A stretch of 14,478 nt of DNA, from positions 1-14,478 of IMG/VR virus record IMGVR_UViG_2713896899_000013. One strand, 5' to 3'. This DNA is from a virus. Taxonomy: Duplodnaviria > Heunggongvirae > Uroviricota > Caudoviricetes. Below, one piece after another: positions 853 through 1,147 of this stretch (within the stretch, counting starts at the first letter, position 1; each line of letters opens with the position of its first letter). The translations under genes were made by a program, and so were the position numbers. The notes under the pieces were generated by a model. The model did not search any database, had not been told where the DNA came from, and worked only from the letters and a program-made list of their open reading frames with translations.

Positions 853-1147
853 TGGCTCTGACACCAGAATCATTTCCATAGCCGAACTGACGCTGACAGA
901 TTTTTAATTCGCTTATGGCTTTCTCCATTGCTAATAGCGCGTCTTCAGTACGGTAGCAATCAACCTCAAGAACAAACGTTTTGAGATTGCTACTATCATT
1001 CCCGGCGAAAAGCGCATAGCTGGGTTGACCAGTCTGATTCATCCCCCCCCCCTCAAACGACGAAACCCGCTCGACGGCGGGTTTAAGCCACGTGACAAAG
1101 TAACCACTCTTAACACGATACAATAGTTTTTGCGTACGCGTTAGCAT
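842..1147 (-). CDS. Hypothetical protein (101 aa) containing a homopolymeric tract
   Basis: ORF in the track; no clear Shine-Dalgarno; the C10 run (G10 on the coding strand) encodes E-G-G-G in frame, so the length of the tract controls the reading frame. Confidence 0.35.
   Translation of the reverse strand: MLTRTQKLLYRVKSGYFVTWLKPAVERVSSFEGGGMNQTGQPSYALFAGNDSSNLKTFVLEVDCYRTEDALLAMEKAISELKICQRQFGYGNDSGVRAIIR
1043..1052. repeat. Homopolymeric tract, 10 x C (10 x G on the minus strand)
   Basis: Read directly: atCCCCCCCCCCtcaaacg. Confidence 0.9.

Follow-up and report, generated by a model that had tools for sequence, protein, structure and literature searches.

The window, that is the whole 14,478-nt stretch analysed (IMG/VR record IMGVR_UViG_2713896899_000013), is a lambdoid prophage sequence of the SfII/SfIV/SfV/PhiR type, and its minus strand is the direction of phage late transcription. 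Along this strand, the genes for a KilA-N protein, a DUF968/HNH protein, and the antiterminator Q are followed by an opposite-strand cargo gene, a conserved non-coding element, a homopolymer tract, a small gene that converges with a DUF2441 gene, and the start of a holin gene at the left end (Table 1). The 294-aa cargo protein has an Ion_trans_2-like C-terminus and a coiled-coil middle, and gave no match in PHROG or PADLOC. Homologous loci are referred to below by their L numbers.

Table 1. Features of the window around the homopolymer tract, in window coordinates.
Feature	Position	Strand	Remarks
Holin gene start	1..36	(-)	ATG 36-34, gene runs off left window end; first lysis gene of late operon; PF04971 holin at homologous loci
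DUF2441 gene, 182 aa	304..852	(+)	phrog_5663, PF10386; convergent with small gene, 11-nt overlap at 842-852
CDS of 66-aa protein, function unknown	842..1042	(-)	phrog_10826; ATG 1042-1040, TAA 844-842; PHROG match, homologues, purifying selection
Homopolymer C10 (plus strand) / G10 (coding strand)	1043..1052	(-)	Shine-Dalgarno/spacer abutting small-gene start codon; between-strain length G7-G13
35-codon N-terminal extension of six-frame ORF 842-1147, non-coding artefact	1043..1147	(-)	needs tract of 7, 10 or 13 and ATG 1147; overlies conserved non-coding element with terminator hairpin
Intrinsic-terminator-like hairpin AAACCCGC-CGTCGA-GCGGGTTT (1084-1063) with interrupted U-run TTTCGTCGTTT	1055..1084	(-)	candidate tR'
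Conserved non-coding leader/promoter region	1085..1155	(-)	invariant GTTAAGAGTGGTTAC; -10-like TATCGT 1120-1115 (TAnnnT in all variants); A-run; palindrome
Palindrome GCGTACGC	1132-1139		co-varies with Q clade
Cargo gene, 294-aa protein with C-terminal ion-channel-like segment	1196..2080	(+)	PF07885, E = 2.6e-5
Antiterminator Q gene	2118..2477	(-)	PF06530, E = 2.6e-45; distant relative of Q21 (PDB 6P18/6JNX, E = 5e-4)
DUF968/HNH protein gene	2480-3475	(-)	
KilA-N protein gene	3477-4274	(-)	first in the minus-strand order given above

Two observations concern the surroundings of these genes. The slot between Q and the conserved element is always filled by 0.9–3 kb of opposite-strand cargo that differs between phages (L001 4156-5770, L003 2629-4192, L151 1434-2531, L150 2282-2845), elsewhere it contains a porin, an unknown protein of 187 aa, or, in SfII and Stx2a phages, two hypothetical proteins. 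The slot resembles a hotspot for morons or defence genes. Just upstream of the holin start, a motif GGTGCAAATTGAG (57-70 in the window, about 3899-3915 in L001) is common to the window, which has the holin_2_1 type, and to SfII-like loci, which have the lambda-type holin, despite the different holin families. It is possibly a conserved junction or translation signal.

Ten consecutive C residues on the plus strand, G10 on the minus strand, form the tract, as a sequence-only reading of this DNA had pointed out. The run reaches the length of about 8 or more that permits slippage, and its rarity, also claimed in that reading, was borne out: 0.03 C/G runs of at least 9 are expected in a window of such composition, and none of 200 dinucleotide-preserving shuffles matched the observed count of these runs. 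The tract is flanked by the DUF2441 gene and the ion-channel-like gene in a stretch low in GC, in agreement with its described place between the two other genes of an AT-rich insert. The six-frame list does contain the minus-strand ORF 842-1147 (...SSFEGGGMNQ...), in which the tract is in frame as E-G-G-G. From this it had been proposed that the tract lies inside a coding ORF, and that a slip of +/-1 would truncate or re-frame the protein.

Comparison with homologues places the start of the gene 3' of the tract. The 66-aa ORF matched residues 1-66 of the 68-position profile of phrog_10826 (E = 2.4e-40), and homologues on viral contigs with 65% identity also span residues 1-66, with the same start methionine and the same stop. 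Further 66-aa homologues with 85–92% identity were present in protein databases, one of them from Serratia fonticola. Against L128, the 66-aa ORF showed six synonymous differences and one non-synonymous difference (dN/dS 0.04), and against L129 the differences at the three codon positions numbered 20/10/41. These comparisons show that the 66-aa gene is under purifying selection and that its true start is the ATG directly 3' of the tract, around which the minus strand reads GCGGGTTTCGTCGTTTGA-GGGGGGGGGG-ATGAATCAG. Because phrog_10826 aligned from residue 1 and the 65%-identical homologues share the start, the tract is to be read as 5'-UTR/Shine-Dalgarno (SD) sequence, and not, as had been claimed, as part of the coding ORF. 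The model of the small protein has a predicted beta-beta-alpha-beta topology (pLDDT 71); a fold search with it against the PDB gave no match below E = 0.1, and a Pfam search of the protein gave nothing but a sub-threshold ACT-like match (E = 0.055).

The remaining part of the 101-aa ORF is open past the tract because of the tract length and one non-conserved ATG at 1147; this frame is open only at tract lengths of 7, 10, or 13. Homologous elements have ACG or ACT in place of the ATG at 1147 (ACG in the E. coli homologue L001), and in the window this ATG has no SD and lies upstream of the transcription start site that we infer below. In near-identical relatives with G9, a stop codon lies three codons before the conserved ATG and rules out any extension. 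Public gene calls gave the 66-aa form on 285 contigs versus the 101-aa form on 24, and the other called forms (93, 92, 94, 102, 90, and 91 aa) differ only in the N-terminal extension. The called extensions end in EGGM, EGGGM, EGGGGM, RLRGGM, or RLRGGGM, corresponding to tract lengths of 7, 10, 13, 8, and 11 in two frames; lengths of 9 and 12 correspond to the third frame, which is closed. On these alignments and gene calls, we conclude that the 101-aa ORF is artefactual and is produced by the G10 length.

A switch of the coding-frame kind, in which +/-1 slippage within a translated 101-aa gene turns expression ON or OFF, can draw on the existence of the six-frame ORF with its E-G-G-G and on the 24 contigs where the 101-aa form was called, but it has the 285 calls of the 66-aa form against it, as well as the family profile and all divergent homologues, which start 3' of the tract, the closure of the extension in G9 relatives, and the non-conserved ATG at 1147, upstream of the putative start site and without an SD. 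The extension moreover overlaps a terminator hairpin and a promoter-like region that are present in hundreds of phages without the small gene. A coding-frame switch has its run within the translated frame of a real gene, and here the gene starts 3' of the run. We regard this explanation as scarcely credible. The supposed truncation or re-framing fell away, as all lengths from G7 to G13 keep the 66-aa ORF intact.

The sequence overlaid by the spurious extension was conserved far beyond the cassette. Matches of the window in E. coli genomes (190 genomes, 87–90% identity, nothing annotated there) were confined to 1041-1155, as were those in 203 phage records, among them Stx1a and Stx2a phages, SfII, and 434. 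In annotated records, the element lies between opposite-strand cargo near Q and the first late/lysis genes. Its hairpin core was present at 123 loci (the window, L001, L002, and 120 viral-contig loci), and a Q homologue with 40–100% identity was found on the same strand, 0.9–3 kb upstream of the element, in all 104 of them that had enough upstream sequence. The 38 distinct variants of the element could be aligned without gaps. Each contains a palindrome (GCGTACGC, GCGGTCCGC, or ACGTACGT), an A-run, TAnnnT at a fixed position, the invariant GTTAAGAGTGGTTAC, and a hairpin AAACCCGCC-GTCGA-GCGGGTTT followed by a T-rich run. The palindrome type splits perfectly by Q clade, the identities to the window Q being 73–100%, 54–58%, and 49–52%.

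From the conserved TAnnnT, we infer a late transcription start near 1108. A scan of the element for the sigma-70 promoter consensus (window, L004, and L038) made no call, and there is no canonical -35. The palindrome, of 8–9 bp, lies about 24–31 nt upstream of this putative start and tracks the Q clade despite the variable cargo in between; at 1132-1139, and at the corresponding site in L004-L123, it may serve as a Q-binding element for this little-studied Q family. The hairpin was scored as an intrinsic terminator in late-gene orientation in L004 and L038, both of which have uninterrupted T-runs. The window copy is retained in the MFE fold; its U-run TTTCGTCGTTT is interrupted and fails the T-run criterion of the terminator scan, which may make this copy leaky. 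Taken together, the element is probably the late promoter/leader/terminator (pR'-qut-tR' analogue) of this Q family, and without antitermination would give a transcript of about 50 nt. A search of Rfam at the gathering threshold and at E ≤ 1 assigned no family, a Twister-P5 match at E = 0.97 being attributable to chance; a tRNA/tmRNA search found none, and a literature search turned up nothing specific on the late promoter used by this Q family.

The element resembles the pR'-tR' unit that gives lambda 6S RNA and StxS (PMC7547250) in its position between Q and the lysis genes, its intrinsic terminator, and its tie to the Q clade. StxS belongs to a 144-aa Q type with a pR'-tR' distance of 258 nt (PMC7547250), whereas the Q proteins here are of 114–127 aa (PF06530), the putative transcript is about 50 nt, and Q and the element lie 0.9–3 kb apart, with opposite-strand cargo between them. 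Homology to StxS or lambda 6S RNA was rejected on the differences in Q type and length and on finding no sequence or Rfam similarity, and by comparison of layout the late element would be analogous to, not homologous with, these RNAs.

A GC-rich hairpin with a U-run also precedes the small gene in four of six folded divergent homologues (L128, L134, L187, and L190); the fold of the L129 variant is less convincing, and no hairpin precedes the gene in the distant L143 copy. Some loci depart from the common arrangement. In the viral contigs L073, L098, and L114, the element is disrupted immediately 5' of the -10-like hexamer, with unrelated sequence in place of the palindrome and the A-run. This sequence (…GGTGATGCTGCCAACTTACTGATTTAGTG, other strand) resembles an insertion-sequence end, putatively the IS1 terminal repeat. 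In L001 (3880-4012, minus strand) and the other 'class A' loci, which lack the cassette, the terminator is followed by CTGGGGCTGGGG, which is G-rich and SD-like, and by a putative TTG-initiated ORF of about 38 codons that encodes a hydrophobic peptide and extends up to the holin ribosome-binding site. This putative ORF is unannotated, and one variant has a 1-nt indel nearby.

We then compared the sequence 5' of the small-gene start codon among loci. On the coding strand, the window reads UUUGA-G10-AUG, in the wider context ...GCGGGUUUCGUCGUUUGA-G10-AUG. The homologues have a canonical SD sequence and a 5-nt spacer where the tract sits: CAGGAGGACACU-AUG in L129-L137, GUGAGGCAGCU-AUG in the Serratia locus L187, GAGAGGAUUUGAAUC-AUG in L143, CUGGAGGGGGU-AUG in L190, and GAGGAGGGGGGGA-AUG in L128, against GA-G(n)-AUG in the window lineage. 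The sequences form a series from AGGAGGACACU through GGAGGGGGU and GAGGAGGGGGGGA to the uninterrupted G-run. Since homologues have an ordinary SD at the tract position, this alignment indicates that the homopolymer is a derived form of an ordinary SD plus spacer. In BLAST, similarity to phages without the cassette stops at the tract, and we considered whether the tract is a recombination junction; this was set aside in favour of a simpler reason, namely that the cassette begins with its own SD.

The tract length varied among homologous loci, a comparison that the sequence-only reading had called for. On identical flanks, different records have G9, G10, G11, or G12. Among 18 records not chosen on length, there were one G8, nine G9, four G10, three G11, and one G12, so the measured range is G8-G12, on flanks that differ by 0–3 substitutions per 1.3 kb. 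Zero flank substitutions in 1,300 nt were found between CAXVQW (G9) and both OZ039590 and DABDZK (G11), between OZ040655 (G9) and CP147739 (G10), and between CP057559 (G10) and CAMJTQ (G9). Protein calls extend the implied range to G7-G13, the lengths G7 and G13 (variants P0011 and P0013) coming from protein sequences only. The A6, T6, and T7 runs of the locus did not vary in the same 18 records, these control runs of 6–7 nt being shorter than the tract. The lengths partly follow haplotype, one haplotype having G11 and another G9, each in three independent assemblies, and G10 was found again in more than 20 independent short-read assemblies. The cassette was present in none of 5,426 RefSeq complete E. 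coli genomes, and the tract lengths therefore come from draft, GenBank, and SRA-derived assemblies. An exact-pattern scan gave no match in species-representative genomes and a single match in metagenomes.

Several sequencing platforms are prone to errors at homopolymers of 10 or more. If the length differences were a sequencing or assembly artefact of the poly-G/C run, the tract would be effectively fixed in vivo. This general susceptibility speaks for such an explanation, as does one assembly, L189, with other homopolymer deletions and a frameshifted ORF, but the constancy of the A6/T6/T7 runs in the same 18 assemblies, the clustering of G11 and of G9 by haplotype, the recurrence of G10 in the short-read assemblies, and a span of 7–13 that exceeds typical +/-1 errors all argue against it, and we hold it to be unlikely. 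The pattern fits heritable slippage mutation that is much faster than point substitution and speaks against pure random error, as read from these assemblies; error may contribute to some of the length differences. Of the two possibilities raised at the outset, the phase-variation switch stands as a length-variable hotspot of the slippage type (G8-G12 on near-identical flanks) and not as a frameshift, the tract being outside the frame, and a sequencing or assembly hotspot may underlie part of the variation, L189 being one error-laden assembly, with the invariant controls and the haplotype pattern against it as the whole explanation.

It should be mentioned what L189 (GCA_002230675.1) looks like. 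At 2890-3200 it has G10, but its leader carries the deletions GGG>GG and AAAAA>AAAA, and its small ORF (P0040) has an internal frameshift. Errors of assembly or decay of the copy are the probable cause, and L189 serves as a warning on homopolymer lengths in databases.

To what extent length could affect translation was modelled as pairing with the 3' end of 16S rRNA. The best register was UGAGGGGGG at -11.6 kcal/mol, with a gap to the AUG of n-6 for a tract of length n. In this model, n of at least 9 puts the strongest register 3–8 nt from the AUG, and the best in-range energy drops to -10.7 at G8 and -7.2 at G7. When the read-through leader was folded with G0-G13, much of the run was paired (probability of being unpaired 0.17–0.35), and neither the tract nor the AUG showed a monotonic trend in accessibility. 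A structural-switch model was dropped as unsupported, since the folds from G0 to G13 gave no monotonic change in accessibility. Given the predicted pairing of most of the tract, the simple SD-spacing model may be incomplete.

A further explanation is that the G-run acts on transcription past the late terminator, by termination or antitermination, RNA polymerase pausing, an R-loop, or a G-quadruplex. The terminator stem of the window copy, with its broken U-run, lies 10 nt ahead of the run, and the folds pair the Gs of the run with the C-rich hairpin arm, but the run is transcribed after the termination point, the homologous terminators work with unrelated downstream sequence, and a single run cannot form a standard intramolecular quadruplex. 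A role at this level appears very improbable to us.

We favour the reading that the tract is the ribosome-binding region of the conserved 66-aa gene, and that its length changes give graded or near-neutral tuning with no ON/OFF frameshift; sequence comparison and pairing models together put its probability at about 0.75. The small gene would be the first gene after the late-operon terminator of the lambdoid prophage, with the tract as its ribosome-binding region. The poly-G run would grow and shrink by slipped-strand mispairing in replication. Each extra G would shift the register UGAGGGGGG 1 nt farther from the AUG, with the run supplying alternative registers, so that a strong SD would remain suitably spaced in tracts of G9 and longer and would be weakened in those of G8 and shorter. 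The expected outcome, as modelled, would be a graded, possibly near-neutral, tuning of the translation of the small protein.

In every case, the small gene and the DUF2441 gene converge, and their 3' ends overlap or abut; a convergent pair with 3' overlap was seen in the window, L128, L129, L143, L187, and L190. The pair occurs in at least four contexts, that is three Q/late-region types and a HicAB-adjacent site in Serratia. Pfam puts DUF2441 (PF10386) in the ADP-ribosyltransferase (ART) clan together with DarT and RES (PMC7955679). The best PDB match of the DUF2441 model (pLDDT 92) was 2AUA, of its own family and of unknown function (E = 3e-7), followed by weak matches (E ≥ 0.2) that were almost exclusively ART toxins. 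None of the small protein, DUF2441, and the ion-channel-like protein had a match in PADLOC. A toxin/antidote or defence role of the cassette is a reasonable hypothesis.

Two features of the pair may be noted here. At some loci in Escherichia genomes, the DUF2441 gene (at about 3191-3739) is shortened (164 aa in L151, L157, and L158) or disrupted (52 aa in L154), with the 66-aa gene intact, as would be expected of a costly DUF2441 and a protective small protein. Through the 11-nt tail-to-tail overlap, late transcription of the small gene would be antisense to the whole DUF2441 mRNA, and such antisense transcription is a possible phage route to silence DUF2441 in lytic growth.

These properties bear on whether the variation is selected. 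The tract might be a contingency locus, acting as a translational rheostat or switch on a small protein that serves as antidote or regulator of DUF2441, with heritable heterogeneity among lysogens as the result. Such a role would be in keeping with the conservation of the pair across at least three phage contexts and several genera, the ART clan shared with the DarT and RES toxins, the loci where DUF2441 is truncated to 164 or 52 aa beside an intact small gene, and the rarity of G8 and shorter tracts, for which the model predicts a weaker SD. Most homologues, however, use an ordinary fixed SD, so that function does not depend on the homopolymer; no structural match was found for the small protein, and PADLOC had no entry that fits; and the genes are convergent, unlike a co-directional toxin-antitoxin operon. 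On balance, selection of this kind seems to us quite unlikely. Its most explicit form, in which the poly-G ribosome-binding site slips between about G8 and G13 and sets, in a heritable yet reversible way, the dose of the 66-aa protein made from leaky-terminator read-through, this protein being the antidote or regulator of an ART-fold DUF2441, is a long shot. If it were true, lysogen populations would be mixed for the activity of a prophage-borne effector; to our knowledge, a translational phase-variation mechanism of this kind has not been described for Escherichia prophages.

With the tract read as a ribosome-binding region, it is a further case of known 5'-UTR homopolymer variation. Poly-G/C tracts of the coding-frame contingency loci of Campylobacter, Neisseria, and Haemophilus switch genes ON and OFF. 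The prophage tract shares with them a homopolymer of about 8 or more, polymorphism among strains, and, by inference here, slipped-strand mispairing, and differs in that their tracts are in frame and this one lies outside the real reading frame. Moraxella catarrhalis uspA1 has a poly(G) in its 5' untranslated region, between transcription start and start codon, and alleles with 9 and 10 G differ in expression. Alleles with 9 and 10 G also occur here, downstream of a putative start site; in uspA1, the effect is reported to be on transcript abundance, about 30 nt separate the tract from the ATG, and the product is a surface adhesin, not that of a phage late-region gene.

In Mycobacterium tuberculosis espR, a 7G tract 144 nt upstream of the start codon was shown experimentally to act via leader folding (PMC11898584). 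Both are poly-G runs in an mRNA leader, a putative one in the prophage, with recurrent single-base indels in natural isolates and an unchanged reading frame. The post-transcriptional effect in espR has been demonstrated, whereas its counterpart here is only modelled; and here, in an Escherichia prophage gene, the run itself would be the SD/spacer that abuts the AUG. A variable G-repeat in the leader of Helicobacter pylori tlpB is targeted by the sRNA RepG (PMC8295292). Again the leader G-repeat varies in length and translation control is graded rather than ON/OFF (modelled in our case), but tlpB needs a trans-acting C/U-rich sRNA, and none is known for the prophage tract. H. pylori is without mismatch repair, and Escherichia has it. 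The 5'-UTR repeats of Haemophilus influenzae (PMC12721329) are a further case of leader-repeat variation.

For annotation, the locus illustrates how a homopolymer upstream of a start codon breeds spurious N-terminal extensions and false "frameshift switch" candidates: the same gene is called as 66, 90, 91, 92, 93, 94, 101, or 102 aa purely by tract length. The tract serves an uncharacterised, widely mobile two-gene cassette, consisting of the small protein and the ART-clan DUF2441, directly after a lambdoid late terminator, and this cassette could plausibly be a defence or toxin-antidote module. Simple-repeat hypervariability is considered rare in mismatch-repair-proficient Escherichia, and for that reason the run at the ribosome-binding site, polymorphic from G8 to G13, offers a natural test case for the relation between SD-run length and translation.
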